This document shows, piece after piece, positions 6,397-28,495 of a stretch of 64,000 nt of DNA (within the stretch, counting starts at the first letter, position 1; each line of letters starts with the position of its first letter). Position numbers and translations under genes: made by a program. The stretch comes from Candidatus Thorarchaeota archaeon (lineage in GTDB: Archaea > Asgardarchaeota > Thorarchaeia > Thorarchaeales > Thorarchaeaceae): positions 6,527 through 70,526 of the forward strand of contig JBHLRP010000002.1 in the NCBI GenBank assembly GCA_048882485.1, read 5' to 3'. The notes beneath the pieces are model-generated. The model was not told where the DNA came from. It searched no databases and was given only the letters and a program-made list of their open reading frames with translations.

Positions 6397-6951
6397 TTGA
6401 AACTTGTAGATTTGGCAAAAACTGCTCTTAGAATACTACAGGGACGTGGGGAGGAAGGGATTAGGAGCGATGAATTAGCTGAGCAACTTAATACTCCCAA
6501 ACGGCGAATCTATGATGTAATAGCTGTTCTAAAAGCTCTAGGACAAGTATCAACAAAACGTCGGTTTGATGGAACTACTATCACTTGGATCGATCAAACC
6601 CGAAATCTGGTTTCAAAGGCTCAGTATGATGAGATTGCTGCAAAATTCGAGGAGGCAGATTGTGAGCGAATCGACCTTCAGCTCCAGCTAGTTCAATTGA
6701 AGGAGCAGCTTCGAATAGCAAAGACAAAGCTGCGCAGAGACGTCAAGGCAGTCGAAGCCGCAGATAGGACGGAGTTCGACACGACGCAATTGCGAGTAAG
6801 AGCTCTCTCACATTCAGGGATAAAGAAGGTTAGTCAATCTGGAATTGATGTAGTTATTGAGGCCCATGAATCTGGCATAGTAGTAGATCCTACCGTAGTA
6901 GAACCTGATGAGAACGAGCTACTTCTACGGAACCTTCAGCAGAGCCTATAG
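6397..6951 (+). CDS. E2F/DP-like winged-helix protein with coiled coil
   Basis: LAEQL..PKRRIYDVIAVLKALG..(W) matches the E2F/DP RRxYD signature; heptad region follows. Confidence 0.7.
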   Translation: MKLVDLAKTALRILQGRGEEGIRSDELAEQLNTPKRRIYDVIAVLKALGQVSTKRRFDGTTITWIDQTRNLVSKAQYDEIAAKFEEADCERIDLQLQLVQLKEQLRIAKTKLRRDVKAVEAADRTEFDTTQLRVRALSHSGIKKVSQSGIDVVIEAHESGIVVDPTVVEPDENELLLRNLQQSL

Positions 6952-7432: not shown

Positions 7433-8575
7433 ATGGAGTGGATTGGGCTGCAGCGAGCCAAACTTGACGTTGCCTTTGTGGTCGATACGACCGGTTCAAT
7501 GAAAGATGACATTCGTGCAGTGAAAGACAGCCTGTTTGACATTGTCGACAAAATAACTACACGAACCAAGGAATTGAGTATACGATTCGCGATAGTTTCC
7601 TACCGTGACCATCCTCCTCAGGATCACTCCTATGTGACGCGGATTTTCGATTTCTCAGAACGTATCAAGAATGTACATAGGGAGATATCGAATCTTAATC
7701 CTTCTCAGGGCGGTGATACGCCGGAAGCTGTCGGTGATGGACTATTTGATGCTAGGACAAAGCTCTCATGGGATGAACATGCCTACAAGGCATTGCTGCT
7801 TGTTGGTGATGCACCACCGCATGGCCGAAAGTATAACTCCCTAAGCGATGATTACTTTCCGGACGGGTGCCCCAAAGGTCATGACCCTCAGAGGGAAGTG
7901 CAATCTCTCAAGAGCCGATACGGGGAAACTGTATTCATTTTCGTTTGTGGCTGCAATCCTCTTGTAAAAGAATCATTCAAAAGCATCGCAGATTCCGTAG
8001 ATGGAGGGCGATACTATTCTCTGCAGGAGGCACACGAATTACCGGAAGCTATTCTTCGAATCCTTGAAGGGGTAAGCGATCTTATTGAATCTGATCGAAG
8101 AGTTCTTTCCTACTATGAGGCAAATGACGGGACATTTGACATCGGGGAGGCCGCAGTTCAGCTTGGATTGGAGATTAGAGATGTAAAGACATCGCTCTCA
8201 CGGCTCCTTGAGCTCAGCAAAATTGCTAGATGGCCAAAGGGACGTCCGCTTGCAGCATCAAAGATGGGAATGAGTGTTGAGCTTGGTGAAGTCCCTGACG
8301 CTCTGATCGCAGGAAGACCATTCATGTATGACTTGAGAGTGAAGAATCCGAGTCGAGCTGTCATAGGAATCCGTCTTATCGTCACATTGATCACGCCTGA
8401 AGGAGTGTCTGAGGTCACGAATGAGAAGCATGAAATTGGCCCCAATTCTGAACGACTTATTGAGTCGCAGCTCACGCCGATGACAGATGAAAAAGGTAAG
8501 GCAAGTATTCGTGTTGAGGTCATGTATGGGTCCAAATCCCTTGCGACTGCGATATACAATACCCGTCTGTATTAG
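7433..8575 (+). CDS. vWA domain protein with C-terminal winged helix and beta-sandwich domains
   Basis: MIDAS DTTGSM, YRDHPPQD, GGDTPEAV, GDAPPHG. Confidence 0.8.
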   Translation: MEWIGLQRAKLDVAFVVDTTGSMKDDIRAVKDSLFDIVDKITTRTKELSIRFAIVSYRDHPPQDHSYVTRIFDFSERIKNVHREISNLNPSQGGDTPEAVGDGLFDARTKLSWDEHAYKALLLVGDAPPHGRKYNSLSDDYFPDGCPKGHDPQREVQSLKSRYGETVFIFVCGCNPLVKESFKSIADSVDGGRYYSLQEAHELPEAILRILEGVSDLIESDRRVLSYYEANDGTFDIGEAAVQLGLEIRDVKTSLSRLLELSKIARWPKGRPLAASKMGMSVELGEVPDALIAGRPFMYDLRVKNPSRAVIGIRLIVTLITPEGVSEVTNEKHEIGPNSERLIESQLTPMTDEKGKASIRVEVMYGSKSLATAIYNTRLY

Positions 8576-8589
8576 GTGCGTGGCTGGTC

Positions 8590-9717
8590 TTGGAGCTTGA
8601 TGCTATCGAAGGACGAAGCCAGAGAGGAATCTCATTTGTGCATCCCTCGGTTACCACGATTTCCACGGCTCAATTGAGCTATGAAGGCGTGACAGTTTTC
8701 ACTGACATACGCACTTCAGAGAGAATAGCATCTGGCTCCATTGTAATCGATTCCAGAATATTCAATGAGTTGGGATGTGAAGAGCACAACGAAGTTACCT
8801 TGACAGCTGTTCCTGAGGTGATACCTGACTCCAGTGAGCTAACTCTGCTTGTTGATTCTCTGGAAGGACTAGAGAATACAAAAGCTGTGGATGCCTTATC
8901 CAGACGAATCGATGATCTCAAGGATCATCTTGATGGTCTGATTGTACGAATGGGGCAGCGGATTGATATTACTGAGCTTGGCATAGGATTGATCGTGGAT
9001 GACTCAAAGCCCGTTGCGGAACAGCTGCAGGCATCTAGGATTATGTGGGATCAGCTTTTGAAGGTCAATCTTGCGGCGCAAGCTGAATTTCCTTCTTGTT
9101 TCAATTTATGCTGCGTGGTAGACGTAGGAGCATCATCTGGTATTGAAGATGTAGAGATGGAAGATGGCACTGCAGGAATCACACGATTCGAAGCTAGTCT
9201 GTGTGCAATTAAGGCCATACTATCCTCTGCCAAGGAGTGCGATGACGCTTTGGTCTCAGCTGTTGCGTTTGGTGAGTCGTCCGTAGAATTGGCAAGTAGC
9301 GAAGGTAGCATACTTCAATTGAGTTCAGAATCGTATCAGCCAATCCACGATTGGCTTTGTGAACAGAATAATGACCGCAATGATGAACCATCAAATCCTG
9401 GGAGTGCCATGGATTTGTCTATTGGAGTAGCACACCAACTGAAATCGCGGAATGGACTCCCTGCCCTTGTGATATTCGTATCTGGTGGTGCATTCACTTC
9501 AGGTCGCAATCCGGTCATTACAGCAAGAAGAATGGGAGCGAGCGAAGGCATCTTTGTTACATGCGTGGCACTGGGAACCGAATCAGACATGGATTTAATG
9601 CAAGCTATTGCGGTTGCGGGTAAAGGGAGTCTGATTCATATAGACAAGTTCAAAGAAATTACATCAAGGATTGAGAGAATATTCGATAGGATTGATAACG
9701 AGGTTGTTGACAGGTGA
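8590..9717 (+). CDS. Cdc48-N-like + vWA protein with degenerate MIDAS
   Basis: FNLCCVVDVGASS; TRFEA; VIFVSGGAFTSG; alignable by eye to 15622..16902. Confidence 0.7.
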   Translation: MELDAIEGRSQRGISFVHPSVTTISTAQLSYEGVTVFTDIRTSERIASGSIVIDSRIFNELGCEEHNEVTLTAVPEVIPDSSELTLLVDSLEGLENTKAVDALSRRIDDLKDHLDGLIVRMGQRIDITELGIGLIVDDSKPVAEQLQASRIMWDQLLKVNLAAQAEFPSCFNLCCVVDVGASSGIEDVEMEDGTAGITRFEASLCAIKAILSSAKECDDALVSAVAFGESSVELASSEGSILQLSSESYQPIHDWLCEQNNDRNDEPSNPGSAMDLSIGVAHQLKSRNGLPALVIFVSGGAFTSGRNPVITARRMGASEGIFVTCVALGTESDMDLMQAIAVAGKGSLIHIDKFKEITSRIERIFDRIDNEVVDR

Positions 9718-10955
9718 ACGATGAAGCAATAACCAGACTTCAAGCAATGTATAGCAGTAGCGAAGTCCTTGGATATCTAATCTCGCAACTTCCAGAAAAG
9801 GGACTCAAATCGGGATGGGTTGAGGAAGGGCTGCTAGCAAAAGGACTCCAAGAGTCTTCAACTACGAAATTCAACCAAGAGAATTACATTGAACCGACTC
9901 ATGAAGCTATACATTTGATGGCTGATCGCGCAATGGATGCTCCTGGAAGAACTGGCATCTTCATTCTTGGAGAGCCGGGGCTGGCTTCATCAAAGCTCGT
10001 CGTTGTGCTATCAGACGATGAACGCGCGCGAGGGCGAGTCAAGCTGGCCACAACTATCTGGCTTCGTGACTATTCCCCACACGAAATCATTCGCCTTGTC
10101 TTGAAGTATATTCTTGGAGAGAAGCTCTCTCCGGAATTTGAGGAACCGCATCTGGATTATATTGAACAATTGAGAATAGACGCCATAGAATGGGAGGCTG
10201 CTGAAGTCCTTAGTCTGACTATCCCCGGGAGAAAATTCAACACTTCAATCTGGATAAAACAAGCAATTGAACTACCAGAGGAGGAATACTCAATTGCCCT
10301 GCGATGTGGGAAGTTGAGACAGATTCCAGCCTTTGCACTTCTCTTCAGCCGTTGGCTTATTGATTTGCCGATCTTTGAGGATTTGAATCTGGGAGTAGCC
10401 GCGGCTATTCTTAGAAAGGAGGACAGGGTGGAGCTAGCTATCTGGGATAATCCACGAGAATTAGCTACCTTCGCCATACTACTGGATACAGATCTTGAAG
10501 ACATTACACGCAAATTCCTGGTGCCTGCTTGGTTCGAGAGGGGTGACAGAGTTCATCCTCCAACAAGAACTAGAGAGGTGGTGGTGAGCAAACCTGGAGG
10601 TATAATTGAGGGGGTGAAGAAGTCCTTCACCTTTGTAGAACCAGTCAAAATAATGCTTAGTGATGAAGAGAAACAAGCAGCTCAATCTCTTACGAAATTG
10701 GTTGATGACTTAAGAGCGCGCATGGAGAAATTCCCAGTTGAGGAAATCATTGAAAGGCTGGAGATTGTTGAGAACCAATCCCAATTACTTGCCAAGCAGC
10801 TGAATTCATCCATGATGACAGGTGATTTTGGAGGAGATGAAGGTGTAGCTCTAGGGATGCTGCGTAACAAGCTTGGACATCTGCTTGATAGACTTGAAGA
10901 GCTATCTGCCAGACTGGGAAACATCGAGGAACGTGCCTCTCAGCTCATCGAATGA
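9714..10955 (+). CDS. hypothetical protein; candidate longin/uDENN (FLCN/SMCR8-like) N-terminus, C-terminal coiled coil
   Basis: GTGA overlap with upstream gene; VVVLSDDERARGRVKLATTIWL motif; heptads at the C-terminus. Confidence 0.55.
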   Translation: MNDEAITRLQAMYSSSEVLGYLISQLPEKGLKSGWVEEGLLAKGLQESSTTKFNQENYIEPTHEAIHLMADRAMDAPGRTGIFILGEPGLASSKLVVVLSDDERARGRVKLATTIWLRDYSPHEIIRLVLKYILGEKLSPEFEEPHLDYIEQLRIDAIEWEAAEVLSLTIPGRKFNTSIWIKQAIELPEEEYSIALRCGKLRQIPAFALLFSRWLIDLPIFEDLNLGVAAAILRKEDRVELAIWDNPRELATFAILLDTDLEDITRKFLVPAWFERGDRVHPPTRTREVVVSKPGGIIEGVKKSFTFVEPVKIMLSDEEKQAAQSLTKLVDDLRARMEKFPVEEIIERLEIVENQSQLLAKQLNSSMMTGDFGGDEGVALGMLRNKLGHLLDRLEELSARLGNIEERASQLIE

Positions 10956-11242
10956 AGTCGGATGTGAATCCTGTGCCAGAGAGTCCGAGAACCCCTCCTG
11001 CGGTAGGCCGGGTAGAAGAAACACTGACCATAATTGAGGAAATTGATGCGCGTTTAAATGATGTCAAAAAGATTCTATCCTTTATAGATGCGGAATCTAG
11101 GCGGCTAGAGGGATTGAGTATTCGTGACCATTTCAATACTATCGAGGAAATTGGCAATACAATAGATGCAATTGAAGTTGAAGTCAATGTGCTGGAAACC
11201 CGAATAGCTACAATTGAATCTCTCAAAAAACATCAGAAGTAG
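10952..11242 (+). CDS. small coiled-coil protein
   Basis: ATGA overlap with upstream gene; heptad pattern. Confidence 0.6.
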   Translation: MKSDVNPVPESPRTPPAVGRVEETLTIIEEIDARLNDVKKILSFIDAESRRLEGLSIRDHFNTIEEIGNTIDAIEVEVNVLETRIATIESLKKHQK

Positions 11243-15621: not shown

Positions 15622-16902
15622 GTGAAACTGGAGATTGATGATGGCGGAGACCTTCGAGGATACGCCGTTCTCAACCCAAAGACTGCTAAGAAGCTGAATG
15701 CTGAGCTGGGATCTATTGTTGTGTTTGAGGATCCAGCATCATCATTCTGGGGTGCTGCTCAAATAAGAATCAATGATGGTGTTCCGGCTGATAGAATCAG
15801 AATTGATACTCTGGTCCTTGAAGCCTCGCTCTTAATGGAAGGCGACACTGGCATTGAAGTGTCTCTGTATGATGAGGACATGATTGCCCTAGAATATGTG
15901 GAATTCGGGCTCAAGCCCCTCAGCGAGGATTCCAGTACGGAAGATCTTGTCACGCGAGCTGCTGAACAAGTCGCATCTTTAGAGAAGCTCATAGGTGGGC
16001 GTTTAGTATACCCGGGAATGTCATTCATTTGGCCGGAGTTGAACGTGAAAGTCGAGATAATGACAACTCGTCCATCTCTCTCTGGCAAGAGATTCGCCAA
16101 ACTCGCTTTTGAAGCTCTTAAGGAACGAACTGGTTATCAGTTCAAGACTATAGGAATTGCTACTCCTTTCAATGCAGTTCTATGTATTGATACCAGCGGT
16201 TCGATGAAAACAACTGATGTGCCTGTTCAGGATATAGCTCATGCACGTGAAGGTCTCAAAGATCTCGCCGGGGATAATCCAGAGGTCCAAGCATTTCTAG
16301 ATCGTTTCAAGGAAGGAACAAATGTCAGTAGAGGTGAGGCTGCAGCGATGGCAGTTCTCCTGTACCTTGCAGAAAAGGTTGGGAGAGGCTATGGCGAGAA
16401 GGTTGGAGTTGTGACTTTCGAGAAGGAGGTCACTGAGATGACTTTTTTGAGTTCGGAAACGGGAGAGGTCCAACCCTATGTTGAGTGTACCGGAAGAGAG
16501 AAGGCTCTTGGTCTTCAAATCATAAGCACTCACGTGGTGGACAAAATTGAGGAAGGAGGCACTCTAACAGATATGGGGACTGCTCTCGTACGAGCTGCAG
16601 ACATCATCAAAGCATTTGGAGACCCAACCAAGCCGACAATGGTCATCATGATGACGGATGGAATGACAACATCTGGCCCTGCTCCACTCAAGGTTCTCAA
16701 GGATCGATTCGCCGATACAACAAGTCTTGTGATTTATACAATCGGACTTGGCGAACGCAGCGAGATTGACGAGGAATTGATGCTCGCGATGGCCCAGTAC
16801 GGTAATGGGACATATCGCCATGTTGACAATATGAGAGATCTTCTAGAGTGGTATGGCAAGCTGGCAAGTGAATTTGCAATTGTCATACGCGGATCGGAAT
16901 AG
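15622..16902 (+). CDS. Cdc48/NSF-N-like (double-psi barrel) + vWA protein, intact MIDAS
   Basis: MIDAS DTSGSM, T in LTDMG, MTDG; N-terminus AVLNPKTAKKL...GSIV...RIRID...GD resembles Cdc48-N; own TATA (TTTATAA at 15557). Confidence 0.8.
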   Translation: MKLEIDDGGDLRGYAVLNPKTAKKLNAELGSIVVFEDPASSFWGAAQIRINDGVPADRIRIDTLVLEASLLMEGDTGIEVSLYDEDMIALEYVEFGLKPLSEDSSTEDLVTRAAEQVASLEKLIGGRLVYPGMSFIWPELNVKVEIMTTRPSLSGKRFAKLAFEALKERTGYQFKTIGIATPFNAVLCIDTSGSMKTTDVPVQDIAHAREGLKDLAGDNPEVQAFLDRFKEGTNVSRGEAAAMAVLLYLAEKVGRGYGEKVGVVTFEKEVTEMTFLSSETGEVQPYVECTGREKALGLQIISTHVVDKIEEGGTLTDMGTALVRAADIIKAFGDPTKPTMVIMMTDGMTTSGPAPLKVLKDRFADTTSLVIYTIGLGERSEIDEELMLAMAQYGNGTYRHVDNMRDLLEWYGKLASEFAIVIRGSE

Positions 16903-24372: not shown

Positions 24373-27300
24373 TCAGTACACTGTGAATTGCTTTTGGTCC
24401 TGCCGAACTGCCCTGTCTGGAAGCGCCTTTCCATCCTGAGTGATAACGGCATCCAGGTAGAATCCAGTGACCATATCAACAGGGGGTGTAGTCCAATGGA
24501 AGGTGATTTCCTCTTCGCCCCCATCAACATCGGAAAGCGAAGCCTTGAACTGTTTCACTATCTCTCTTCTTGACATAACCCTGAGAATTATCCCTAGGTC
24601 TTTCATGCCTTCTTTCAGACCGCATATCTTGGCACCGAGGTCCACCTTTGTAAGCCTCGCGACAAGTCCGGGTATATCCTCACCTGATTTCTTTCGAATC
24701 CAGAGATCGACATCAAACACTGGGCTCTCAATAGCCTTGACCTTAAATCGCTCCTTTCTCTCCATAGTGAGTCTGCCGCACTTCGCGATAGCCTTTAGAT
24801 GTGCCGTACTCATCTCTGCATTCAGTGGCACGCGCAGCTTTATGGGCAGAATCTTGCTCTGACCCGGCTCCAGAGTTCGAGAGCTTTTAAGAAGTTGATC
24901 GGTTCCTCCAATGGACTCCAATTCTATTCTGATTTCATACTTCAGTTTCTTACCTGTGATATTAGTCAGATGAAGGACAGGCCTGATTTCCTCGTCTGGC
25001 AACACAAACGCAGGCACTCCTGCAAAGCTCATGCTTGCAATCTGTCCTTCAGGACCATCGGATAGGGCTATCTCAGTGGATCTCTGATCAATGACTGTGC
25101 CGTCATATGTCAGCTTTGCAGTTAGGGTTACGCTAGCTGGTTTCTTCTTCCCTTTTGGCTCTGGAATTGTGACGGGACCAAATGCCAATGAGAGATTCTT
25201 GCTTTGCTTTACCGTCTGCTCAAGGATAGCTTGCTCATCCTCGTCTGGGAACTTCAGCGAAACTACCAATCCAGCTGGTCCACCTAGTTCTGTGTTGCGT
25301 CGAACCCTCAACCATCCAGCAATCTTGCCTCCAATGTGAGCTGTATCCGGAGCGCGTAGTGAGTCAATATTGAGCAGAACCCCGAGGCGATCGATTCTGA
25401 AACGAGTGGTTTCTATGGAAGTGACTTCCTTCCCCTTGTCCACCAATGAGGATACAATTACACCTGAACGGTGTGACAACTCTTCTGATTCGATTGGTGG
25501 CACTCGCCACGTAAATCTCACAGTCGCCTCAGTAACCTCCTTAATGCCAAATCGAGCTATTTCAAGGTGCTCGCCCGAATCAGAGCGAAACTCGACTATA
25601 AGAAATGCAGATTTGCTCATAGAATGTTTCTTTGATGAGAGTTCAATCTCGCCAACAACTAAATCTCCAGGATAATAGACTCCCTTAATGTCTGCATCAA
25701 ACAGAAGTTGAGGGCCTTTCCTAGCGAATCCAATATAGAATGGCTTTGACATCACTGAGGTGATTAGCTCTTCTTCAGCATCTACAAGATTAAGCCGCAA
25801 TATGCATCGTTCAACGCCATGTGAAGCATCAGTTGGGACTATGAGGTCTGGGAGGCTTGTTTGGTCGAAAAGCAATGTGTCCAGACTCTCTACATGAAGC
25901 TTATCCGTTACTATAGCAAGTACTCGTTCTTTTCGCGGAGATATGACTGCTATGTCTACTGTTACATCGGTTGCTTCTGGGAAGTTGGTTTCAATGTCGC
26001 CCACATAAAGAACGGGCGTCTTCCCATCAGAGAATTGTGTCGTGGTGCCGGGTTTGATGTTGGCCTTCATCCAGTATGTGGTCAATGTTCCGGTCAGGTG
26101 TATCTGTTTCCCGGCTAGAGTGATTGTCACAATAATGTTGTACGCAGTAACATCCTTGGTGGTCTGGAAAGCAATTCGTTCGGTATGAATCTGACCTGAG
26201 CTGATTTCTTGAACGGTTCGTATACCCTCGTGGACCACATTTCGGTCTGAATCTTCTATAGCAAAATCCACTCCAAGGTTGAGGAGAGGACGATCACCAG
26301 TATTCCTGAGTGAAACGACAAATTCAGCTTCCTGCCCTGCAAAAAGCTGCTCTATGTCTGTTAGAATCTCTGGTTCGAGACCAGTCCACCAGCACAACCA
26401 TGTAGGCAATTTTGGTGTTCCTTCAAGTGGGTCATATACCCAGTTAGTACAGCATTCTCTCGTGATGTCAGCCAGACTTTTCAGAAGGACTACCATATTC
26501 ATCTCCGATTTTGCGTAGACATCCAACTGGAAGTCTGCGCTGGTAGTTCTTGGTGGTACGACCTCGCTCCCAAACACCGAAATAAGAATGGACTGCATAA
26601 ATGGATTATCAACGACATCCAGCTCCTCCAACTCATCTCGAATCAGATATAGCATTGATACTACAGCATCGCCCATGAAGCGGTTTCTTCTTTTTTTCTC
26701 GATGGCACCGTCGTCATCTATAATGTGGTTGTAGATTTGCATGAATTCGGGATTATCGGTTTCAGTGCCCGGTCGAAACGGACCCCACAGTCCCGCCGAA
26801 ACAGATGATTCACGGTTTGCTGCAAGTGATTTCGCCCCAGCATTAGGTATCTTCTCTCCCCGTTCCACCATTCTCTTGGCCTTCAAAGCAAGAGCTTGAA
26901 GCAATAATGCAATGCCAATCCTACGTGGTATTGACAATTGTGTGTCAAAGACTCGCAGTTCAACCGTCCCCAGCCTATGAAATGGATACATATCGACCAT
27001 TCTGGCATAACTACGATTCACGTGCCTCGCAAAGGCTTCCTTATCAGGTTGTACCATATATGGAATGAGTTCAAACTCATTTGTAGGTCCAAGCTGGGTC
27101 GTATTTCTAATGAGTCTAATTGACCTCTTGCATCTTGGCGCCCTTGTCCGTCCCTCCTCATCAATTTCAACAACATCAGTCGGTTTCTTATTCTCGAATG
27201 GAGAGTTAACGGAGAGGGCAATGAGATGAGGGATGAAATTTCGAAGCATATTGTATACAGCTATTCTTACCTTGCCATCTACATCTGGTCCCAGAATATG

Positions 27301-27813
27301 ATGATGCTCTCCAAATGAGAGATTCTTGAGATATTCCTGAGCAGGATTCAATCCAGTTGATATGAGAATCGCACGAGCTTCCTTGGGGAGGGACTCATAG
27401 GAGATGGCAATGAGTGTTTGTATCCACCATGCCAGCTCTTCAATCGAAGTGCAGGGCGGAGTTGCAATCTCTAGTATCCAAGTCAGACTCGTAACATTGG
27501 GATCATGTCCAAGAAGTGTAAATTCGGCCGGCTCTCCCTTTGGATTATCGTATACAACCACCACCCTTGAGCCGCGTTCTCCTTCCTCTGTCTGACTGGA
27601 ACGCCTATACTTCTTTTTAACAGAATCCACTCTAGCTGTTTGAATCCTCTTATCAAGCAACACCTTGGCATTCGAGATTAGCTTGTCAAAGATGGTGAGT
27701 ATGTCTTCACCTCGAATCCACGAACCATCCTTTTTGATCACTTGAAGTTCCACTTCGATTCCGTGGACAAACGGCAGGTGCATCTCACTTTCTCTAGGAC
27801 CTGTATCTATCAT
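24373..27813 (-). CDS. GCS2/YbdK-type carboxylate-amine ligase fused to multiple beta-sandwich domains
   Basis: GIEVELQ, LEIATPP, GEHHHI, ALSVNSPF, GTVELRVFD; the ~660 C-terminal aa are beta-rich repeats (e.g. VSLRNTG, LHLTNITG). Confidence 0.8.
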   Translation of the reverse strand: MIDTGPRESEMHLPFVHGIEVELQVIKKDGSWIRGEDILTIFDKLISNAKVLLDKRIQTARVDSVKKKYRRSSQTEEGERGSRVVVVYDNPKGEPAEFTLLGHDPNVTSLTWILEIATPPCTSIEELAWWIQTLIAISYESLPKEARAILISTGLNPAQEYLKNLSFGEHHHILGPDVDGKVRIAVYNMLRNFIPHLIALSVNSPFENKKPTDVVEIDEEGRTRAPRCKRSIRLIRNTTQLGPTNEFELIPYMVQPDKEAFARHVNRSYARMVDMYPFHRLGTVELRVFDTQLSIPRRIGIALLLQALALKAKRMVERGEKIPNAGAKSLAANRESSVSAGLWGPFRPGTETDNPEFMQIYNHIIDDDGAIEKKRRNRFMGDAVVSMLYLIRDELEELDVVDNPFMQSILISVFGSEVVPPRTTSADFQLDVYAKSEMNMVVLLKSLADITRECCTNWVYDPLEGTPKLPTWLCWWTGLEPEILTDIEQLFAGQEAEFVVSLRNTGDRPLLNLGVDFAIEDSDRNVVHEGIRTVQEISSGQIHTERIAFQTTKDVTAYNIIVTITLAGKQIHLTGTLTTYWMKANIKPGTTTQFSDGKTPVLYVGDIETNFPEATDVTVDIAVISPRKERVLAIVTDKLHVESLDTLLFDQTSLPDLIVPTDASHGVERCILRLNLVDAEEELITSVMSKPFYIGFARKGPQLLFDADIKGVYYPGDLVVGEIELSSKKHSMSKSAFLIVEFRSDSGEHLEIARFGIKEVTEATVRFTWRVPPIESEELSHRSGVIVSSLVDKGKEVTSIETTRFRIDRLGVLLNIDSLRAPDTAHIGGKIAGWLRVRRNTELGGPAGLVVSLKFPDEDEQAILEQTVKQSKNLSLAFGPVTIPEPKGKKKPASVTLTAKLTYDGTVIDQRSTEIALSDGPEGQIASMSFAGVPAFVLPDEEIRPVLHLTNITGKKLKYEIRIELESIGGTDQLLKSSRTLEPGQSKILPIKLRVPLNAEMSTAHLKAIAKCGRLTMERKERFKVKAIESPVFDVDLWIRKKSGEDIPGLVARLTKVDLGAKICGLKEGMKDLGIILRVMSRREIVKQFKASLSDVDGGEEEITFHWTTPPVDMVTGFYLDAVITQDGKALPDRAVRQDQKQFTVY

Positions 27814-28495
27814 GGGATTGCACCTGAAATGATGACAACATATCTAACATTGCCAATATCTTCGCCTTGTCTGTTGCAGCACTATAGGAGAAGGTGAGCT
27901 GAACAACTAGTAGTGACCTAGATTTGGAGAATTCCTCTATGAGTTCATAAGTCATTGGGCCTCCGCCATATTGACCTGAGTCTTCGATAATTGTGAGTCC
28001 GAGCCTTTTCAGATTCTTTGTCAAATTTTTCAAGCTATCCTCTGACCCGGAGATATAGCGTTTACCTAGGACAACGGTATTGCTTCTTTCCAAGTCTTCA
28101 AACATGTGGTCCCAGCGTATAACAAGCAAAAAACTGGGTTTAAGGATGGCTTCCCTCTTATTCCATATTTCTCTCTTCATCATCATTATAACACGATTGC
28201 AGGTGCTCATTGATTCTTCAGGATCAGCCGCCTCAACAATCGAAGGCATCTTCGCATCACTTGCTCTTGCACCATCAAGGATAGGCTTCATGGGATCTCC
28301 CTCAACAAGCGCAGTAGGGAAACAGACAACCCCAGCGGACGCGCCAAGAACATAGATTCCGCTCTTGGCGAAGTCCATCGCTCCAAGCTCGTTCTCTAGT
28401 GGTTCCAATTCCTTGTTAAGGTCAGCAACCCTTCTAAAGACCTTTTGAAGAACTTCAATCGTTCTATCCAGTTCATCCGATATACTTACCGTCAC
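27794..28495 (-). CDS. hypothetical protein, degenerate N-formylglutamate amidohydrolase-like
   Basis: VVLG...L...GL.I..D..YGGGPMT...VVQLTFS resembles the FGase C-terminal pattern; overlaps the ligase gene. Confidence 0.45.
   Translation of the reverse strand: MTVSISDELDRTIEVLQKVFRRVADLNKELEPLENELGAMDFAKSGIYVLGASAGVVCFPTALVEGDPMKPILDGARASDAKMPSIVEAADPEESMSTCNRVIMMMKREIWNKREAILKPSFLLVIRWDHMFEDLERSNTVVLGKRYISGSEDSLKNLTKNLKRLGLTIIEDSGQYGGGPMTYELIEEFSKSRSLLVVQLTFSYSAATDKAKILAMLDMLSSFQVQSHDRYRS

Follow-up and report, generated by a model that had tools for sequence, protein, structure and literature searches.

We analysed a window of 64,000 nucleotides from a Candidatus Thorarchaeota archaeon (GenBank assembly GCA_048882485.1, contig JBHLRP010000002.1, positions 6,527 to 70,526 of the forward strand), and describe here a gene at 15622..16902 on the plus strand, with a GTG start, whose 426-aa product, P0001, joins a Cdc48N-like domain to a von Willebrand factor A (vWA) domain. 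The fold, domain architecture, conservation, paralogy and gene linkage of this protein are established by the comparisons below. As to its role, we put at even chances the reading that P0001 is a non-enzymatic docking protein, an adaptor or scaffold, whose partners in the short subfamily to which it belongs would be an amidohydrolase and a GCS2-type ligase. We take the protein to be non-enzymatic because Pfam finds no catalytic domain in it; the vWA domain is the sole Pfam domain that hmmscan reports in P0001.

P0001 belongs to a conserved, mainly Asgard family

Orthologues of P0001 are present across many Thorarchaeota assemblies, at 62-97% identity. In a 90%-clustered collection 137 proteins match it at E<=1e-3, and HMMER, run exhaustively over 1.84 billion representatives, recovers 185 relatives; about 70 of those 50%-identity clusters match P0001 along both its halves (query residues ~10-420). 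A search of the ESM Atlas returned P0001's own cluster and generic vWA clusters, nothing else. The open reading frame is thus a real and strongly conserved gene.

Of 301 Asgard genomes sampled, 178 carry a match to the P0001-type N-domain profile; among the 90 of high quality the count is 64. Its occurrence among Asgard families is patchy: the two largest carry it in 67/76 and 60/68 genomes, and two others in 0/28 and 0/19. Named members of the family come from Thor, Loki, Hermod, Hod, Sigyn, Freya and Odin lineages. Cdc48N-vWA proteins are also encoded on a few contigs that bear the labels Korarchaeota, Bathyarchaeota or Thermoproteota; two of those contigs show Asgard-type synteny. We conclude that the family occurs mainly in Asgard archaea.

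The N-terminal half has the fold of a Cdc48-type N-domain

An original prediction, made from the sequence by eye, had read the first ~170 aa as a double-psi barrel followed by a second subdomain, and the predicted structure, the structural matches to p97-N and the profile matches all agree with that reading. The AlphaFold2 model of P0001, built on 59 family members, has a mean predicted local distance difference test score (pLDDT) of 91.4 and a predicted template modelling score (pTM) of 0.80. Lobe 1 of the N-domain, a double-psi beta-barrel, occupies residues 1-85 (15622..15876, plus strand) on the evidence of the model and the profile matches, with residues 2-82 forming the barrel from six strands and two helices. 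Lobe 2 occupies residues 88-176 (15883..16149, plus strand) on the evidence of the elements in the model and the matches to p97-N structures; its residues 92-176 form a second alpha/beta lobe made up of a strand (92-99), a helix (109-124), a strand (134-150), a helix (163-168) and a last strand (172-176). The motifs quoted in the original prediction can be placed in P0001 at residues 15-25 (AVLNPKTAKKL), 28-33 (ELGSIV), 58-62 (RIRID) and 73-75 (EGD), and further on at 125-132 (GGRLVYPG) and 190-195 (DTSGSM).

In Foldseek comparisons, isolated N-domain structures of p97 and Cdc48 fit residues 1 to ~180 of the model with target-normalised template modelling (TM) scores of 0.64-0.73 and a root-mean-square deviation (rmsd) of 3.4-4.0 Å over 172-192 columns, covering both lobes. 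Complete p97-N chains of 168-184 aa align across 188-192 columns with target-normalised scores of 0.69-0.73. By sequence, the relation to Cdc48 N-domains holds in one kind of comparison and not in another. The family profile matches VAT-N, Cdc48, TER94, FwdD (subunit D of formylmethanofuran dehydrogenase) and designed double-psi barrels, weakly and always in register, and it is in these VAT and Cdc48 matches that the suggested comparison with CDC48_N stands. The Pfam CDC48_N family (PF02359) itself scores 12.1 bits on P0001 (E 0.7), below its cut-off of 35.1, and hmmscan against Pfam, with the limit relaxed to E<=10, leaves residues 1-180 without any match. The host assembly, which was scanned genome-wide (3.96 Mb in 157 contigs, 90.5% complete), holds two genuine Cdc48 genes.

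The vWA domain keeps an intact metal site and carries an insert of its own

Pfam and the AlphaFold2 model concur that the N-domain is joined, as had been proposed, to a vWA domain and not to an AAA+ domain. The vWA domain is encoded at 16150..16902 (plus strand); Pfam VWA_2 (PF13519) matches residues ~181-405 at 36.2 bits, above its cut-off, and in the model the domain spans residues 184-422, with P0001 ending straight after it. Its metal ion-dependent adhesion site, or MIDAS, is intact: D190, S192, S194, T316 and D346 vary hardly or not at all among the 59 sequences.

The helical insertion that had been noticed directly after DTSGSM is visible in the model as a segment of about 40 residues, family-specific, at residues ~197-236 (16210..16329, plus strand, delimited by DSSP of the model). 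It forms an extra strand-helix-helix-strand unit that follows the DxSxS loop (D190-T-S-G-S194) and precedes helix alpha1, and it carries the residues that, MIDAS aside, are the most conserved of the family, namely F225, L226, F229, E231, V235 and R237. Of the ~246 residues of the domain, 183 can be aligned to canonical vWAs. A further residue within the insert, D199 (16216-16218), lies five residues past DxSxS and is invariant in the family, giving the pattern DxSxSMxxxD. This aspartate may supply the metal with a further ligand, or act as a ligand internal to the MIDAS.

Taken by itself, the vWA domain is closest by sequence to ArnB (8s05), and by Z score to 4fx5, TFIIH p44, ITIH1 and Sec24. 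DEPDC5 is not among its 50 best structural matches by Z, and VIA rigid alignment of the whole model returned vWA matches only. Elsewhere in the genome, Pfam Sec23_trunk matches one other gene (contig C25:28266-28868, 39.8 bits, in a 556-aa open frame), which is a separate Sec23/24-like vWA protein.

Two paralogs and two enzyme genes accompany P0001 in the short subfamily

The original prediction had found the same domain order in two further genes of the window, and profile comparison with hhalign confirms it for both. The first, P0002 (8590..9717, plus strand, 375 aa), is a divergent Cdc48N-vWA paralog recognised by hhalign and BLASTP; its residues 36-361 align with residues 44-411 of P0001 (hhalign probability 98.6%, E 9.7e-16), an alignment that does not extend to the first half of the barrel. 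Its MIDAS is degenerate (DVGAS, SGG), and most of the insert is gone. The second, P0003 (11223..13886, minus strand, 887 aa), has an amidohydrolase-like N-terminal half and a Cdc48N-vWA C-terminal half. Residues 468-837 of P0003 (11376-12485) align with the whole of P0001 (BLASTP 3e-14; hhalign 99.5%, E 6.5e-23), and the MIDAS ligands are lost. Residues 266-368 match the amidohydrolase encoded next to it (E 3e-5), with the histidine motif (HHH) of that enzyme replaced in P0003, and there is in addition a weak match to Molydop_binding, a double-psi beta-barrel family. Judged by these sequence changes, P0003 appears to be a fused, dead copy of the amidohydrolase and Cdc48N-vWA pair. P0003 is kept at full length in every Thor locus examined, despite its degenerate amidohydrolase half.

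The amidohydrolase in question is an Amidohydro_2-type metal hydrolase of 502 aa, encoded directly upstream of P0001 (14028..15536, plus strand, Pfam 3.6e-13). Since HHH 29-31, K180, H182, H250, H277 and D308 are all kept in the alignment, the enzyme is apparently active. We compared gene context around family members at 24 loci, all from named genomes, and an Amidohydro_2 gene stands directly upstream of the Cdc48N-vWA gene in the Thor loci, in the Freya locus (L007) and in locus L009. Because P0003 fuses the pair, which is evidence of the Rosetta-stone kind, we suggest that the amidohydrolase and P0001 work together. In a contig labelled Bathyarchaeota, a neutral-ceramidase-like amidase follows the Cdc48N-vWA gene (L021:6947-8351, Pfam Ceramidase_alk 2.4e-12); here it replaces the Amidohydro_2 enzyme, and amide hydrolases of two kinds would then occur beside the family.

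The second candidate partner is a giant GCS2-type carboxylate-amine ligase of 1146 aa (24373..27813, minus strand, assigned by Pfam GCS2 and by synteny). By BLASTP it matches its counterparts in locus L009 at 8e-118 and in the Sigyn locus (L019) at 5e-76. The ligase gene adjoins the Cdc48N-vWA gene in the Freya, L009 and Sigyn loci; in the window it lies ~7.5 kb from P0001, and in those Thor loci with sufficient flank (L001, L003, L005 and L006) it is within 8 kb. A gene at 27794-28495 (minus strand), upstream of the ligase gene, overlaps it by 20 bp and, like the ligase, is conserved with the Cdc48N-vWA gene in the Freya, L009 and Sigyn loci, weakly so (E 8.5e-4).

From this linkage we infer the binding partners of P0001 and its dealings with a substrate. 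If P0001 is a docking protein, the metal of its MIDAS would capture a carboxylate or acidic side chain of one partner, and its N-domain may bind a second, as Cdc48-type N-domains do. In the short subfamily, comprising Thor, Freya and Sigyn members, the likeliest partners would be the metal amidohydrolase encoded next to it and the giant carboxylate-amine ligase of GCS2 type, and P0001 would present a substrate to enzymes that form and cleave an amide bond.

The remaining neighbours are also conserved in part. Thorarchaeota keep the order vWA gene, P0002, a 413-aa protein, a small coiled-coil protein, P0003 (minus strand), amidohydrolase, P0001, HEAT protein (minus strand) and CAAX protease. 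The vWA gene that opens the 7433-11242 run encodes a plain vWA protein (7433..8575, plus strand; Pfam VWA_4 4.3e-13, VWA 1.7e-10), conserved by Thor synteny, and the HEAT-repeat protein convergent with P0001 (16910..18205, minus strand; Pfam HEAT_2 1.8e-13) is a Thorarchaeota-conserved neighbour on the same ground of synteny. At the edge of the vWA gene cluster lies 6397-6951 (plus strand), whose 184-aa product has a winged helix of the E2F/DP type (Pfam E2F_TDP 2.1e-9) and recurs in Thor locus L005.

The architecture resembles the front of DEPDC5/Iml1

DEPDC5, or Iml1 in yeast, is the scaffold of GATOR1, which acts as a brake on mTORC1. Searching the PDB with the P0001 model by Foldseek, we found that ranks 1-9 are all DEPDC5/Iml1, with E-values from 1.9e-14 to 1.5e-11 over ~420-490 columns. 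They comprise human DEPDC5 chains (9xzy, 9v0j_C, 9o5e_H, 8fw5_A, 9o5a_B, 7t3a_A and 7t3b_A) and yeast Iml1/Sea1 chains (8ae6_W and 8adl_W). The best match to a vWA alone is ITIH1 at 1.7e-10, and the best to p97 is at 2.7e-10; E-values lower by four orders of magnitude are what one would expect if two domains matched in the same order. The N-terminal domain (NTD) of DEPDC5 resembles the N-domain of Sec18/NSF, its SABA domain resembles Sec23, and a review regards this combination of domains as unique to it (PMC8534245). The front of DEPDC5 is a docking surface, where SABA binds NPRL2 (PMC8534245, PMC9646525).

Among the collections we searched, the Cdc48N-vWA family is the only one outside eukaryotes with the NTD-SABA layout, and our literature searches on Asgard eukaryote-like proteins and on GATOR/SEA found no prokaryotic counterpart of the DEPDC5 front. 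A search for longer fused forms among proteins of 1685-4810 aa, a range outside which DEPDC5-sized proteins fall, returned generic vWA giants only and does not bear on this. To judge from the model, the architectural likeness of P0001 to the front of DEPDC5/Iml1 is real and is the closest available. Because that layout is shared, is otherwise unique, and is found in the archaeal lineage closest to eukaryotes, we infer that descent of the eukaryotic module from the Cdc48N-vWA family is plausible but unproven, with a likelihood that at most approaches even.

Several results weigh against such a descent. The query-normalised TM scores of P0001 against DEPDC5/Iml1 are 0.37-0.40, with an rmsd of ~10 Å; scores of this size are about what one well-fitted domain would contribute, and they do not show identical packing. 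Pfam IML1 (PF12257), to which comparison had been proposed at the outset, gives no match in P0001 at E<=1 and none in the genome at E<=10. A profile restricted to the N-domain finds VAT-N and FwdD, with DEPDC5 absent at E<=10, and Cdc48/VAT N-domains score as well as or better than DEPDC5 in the profile search. The vWA domain alone ranks with ordinary vWAs (ArnB, TFIIH-p44, ITIH). One match to DEPDC5 by hidden Markov model, at 8.7e-5, was discounted, the target being an artificial tandem DEPDC5 chain of 3384 residues on which two stretches had been summed. Of the resemblance claimed in the original prediction, then, the domain order is borne out by the Foldseek ranking, while a sequence link, a shared packing, the later domains of DEPDC5 and linked NPRL or Rag genes are not.

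There is another explanation of the likeness, namely that two widespread and promiscuous domains, a Cdc48/VAT-type N-domain and a vWA, were joined separately in Asgard archaea and in the eukaryotic stem. P0001 would then be a substrate adaptor for an AAA+ unfoldase or proteasome, comparable to Ufd1 and Rpn10 together, with no special relation to DEPDC5. We consider this unlikely. The N-domain profile does match VAT, Cdc48 and TER94 and not DEPDC5, the nearest relatives of the isolated vWA are of the ArnB, TFIIH-p44 and ITIH types, and the TM scores just given fit a single domain; the genome has its two genuine Cdc48 genes, and prokaryotic vWA proteins often partner AAA+ MoxR ATPases. However, there is no AAA+ gene among the neighbours scanned with Pfam (those of the Thor window, one Loki-type locus, locus L009, one Sigyn locus and one Bathyarchaeota-labelled locus), and the partners that are conserved are a hydrolase and a ligase. 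Moreover, the E-value of the DEPDC5 match, four orders better than that of any single-domain match, needs both domains in order.

A second gene context in long family members

Fourteen of the loci are of a different, Loki type; they are labelled Lokiarchaeia/Promethearchaeota, Hermod or Hod, or carry no label (among L008-L024, for example L018:5493-17170). The protein here is longer, at ~720 aa: its complete module, at residues 314-721, is preceded by a proline-rich linker and by one or two additional segments that resemble barrels. Its gene lies within a recurring order of 2DGel gelsolin, Roadblock/LC7, the long Cdc48N-vWA protein, an AbrB/MraZ-like protein, a coiled-coil protein, an actin-family protein and a CHAT-like protein, each neighbour being present in 9-10 of the 14 loci, as far as the contigs reach. 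The gelsolin matches PDB 7whg_G at 4.7e-11; the actin-family protein is divergent (Pfam Actin 1.5e-46), and the CHAT-like protein has 869 aa. In all ten loci with captured upstream flank, a Roadblock/LC7 gene stands directly upstream of the Cdc48N-vWA gene. This run may be a cytoskeleton-related neighbourhood.

The Cdc48N-vWA family therefore has at least two types of context; the docking module is common to them and the set of enzymes is not fixed. This bears on our preferred reading of P0001 as a docking protein for the amidohydrolase and the ligase, and the objections to it are of two kinds. In the window itself, seven genes lie between the GCS2 ligase and P0001. Across the family, Loki-type members are without amidohydrolase and ligase neighbours, and because their neighbours differ from those of the Thor type, a single set of partners cannot hold family-wide.

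The Roadblock gene of the Loki type also raises the question of whether the family was the direct archaeal source of the NTD-SABA front, and already the scaffold of a Roadblock/longin-based regulator of Rag/Arf-type GTPases. We think this improbable. Apart from DEPDC5/Iml1 being the top structural match, with size and order matching the first ~425 residues of DEPDC5, the idea draws on reports of NPRL2-like longins and Rag-like GTPases in Asgard archaea, Thor in particular (bioRxiv 10.1101/2020.10.19.343400; PMC12290439). Our own scan found 13 Gtr1/RagA-like matches in the host genome. Near P0001, the candidate regulator is the Thor-specific 413-aa protein at 9714..10955 (plus strand), whose gene overlaps the stop of P0002. 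Its AlphaFold2 model is weak (pLDDT 62.8) and has two alpha/beta domains and a C-terminal coiled coil, the second domain weakly resembling Roadblock; we would call the protein Roadblock- or longin-like weakly at best.

Several observations stand against this idea. None of the 13 GTPase matches is on the contig of P0001, and Pfam NPR2 finds nothing in the host genome, as was the case for IML1. The 413-aa protein has no match to NPRL2, FLCN or longin, its candidate arginine is not invariant, Foldseek comparison of its low-confidence model with known structures gave nothing significant and the ESM Atlas only matches at noise level, and hhalign of the protein against the Loki Roadblock was null; the results for this protein speak neither for nor against a GATOR1-like pairing. 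Since Asgard genomes hold Roadblock genes in great number, the presence of one next door counts for little, and the Thor-type neighbours are enzymes rather than GTPase regulators. Finally, it is very improbable that the family is at root a cytoskeleton-linked scaffold with an ancestral role in actin regulation, the Thor enzyme pairing being secondary: the gelsolin, Roadblock and actin-family order does recur across the 14 Loki-type loci, with the gelsolin confirmed against 7whg_G and a proline-rich linker in the long form, but intergenic gaps there of 100-250 bp mean that it is no tight operon, and no gelsolin- or actin-type genes were found near P0001 in Thorarchaeota.

Comparison with known systems

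If P0001 and its relatives are docking proteins, the short subfamily marks an undescribed Asgard gene set that consists of an adaptor, an amidohydrolase, a giant carboxylate-amine ligase and a dead fused copy. The family is also a concrete candidate for the third piece still missing beside the longins and GTPases reported from Asgard archaea, which makes the origin of the DEPDC5/Iml1 scaffold testable. Were it in fact an early form of GATOR1, the mTORC1-pathway parts known from Asgard archaea, so far NPRL2-like longins and Rag-like GTPases, would come to include the third GATOR1 subunit as well.

Three groups of known proteins share part of this architecture. Cdc48, p97, VAT and NSF have an N-domain (CDC48_N and CDC48_2) that likewise consists of a double-psi barrel and a second lobe, but they place it before the AAA+ D1/D2 rings, where P0001 has its vWA domain. 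The ArnB-type and canonical MIDAS vWAs (8s05, 4fx5, TFIIH p44/Ssl1, ITIH1 and the Sec24 trunk) have neither the Cdc48-like N-domain nor the 40-residue insert of P0001; conversely, P0001 is without the beta-sandwich and the helical domain that follow the vWA in ArnB and in the Sec23-24 core. DEPDC5/Iml1 goes on to SHEN, DEP and C-terminal (CTD) domains that are absent from P0001, which ends at residue 426 and has no DEP match, and P0001 differs from it further in its intact MIDAS, its different gene partners and perhaps its family-specific insert after DxSxS. It is nonetheless the NTD-SABA front of DEPDC5/Iml1 that has the same two folds as P0001, an NSF/Cdc48-N-like domain and then a Sec23-trunk/vWA-like domain, in the same order and at about the same size.

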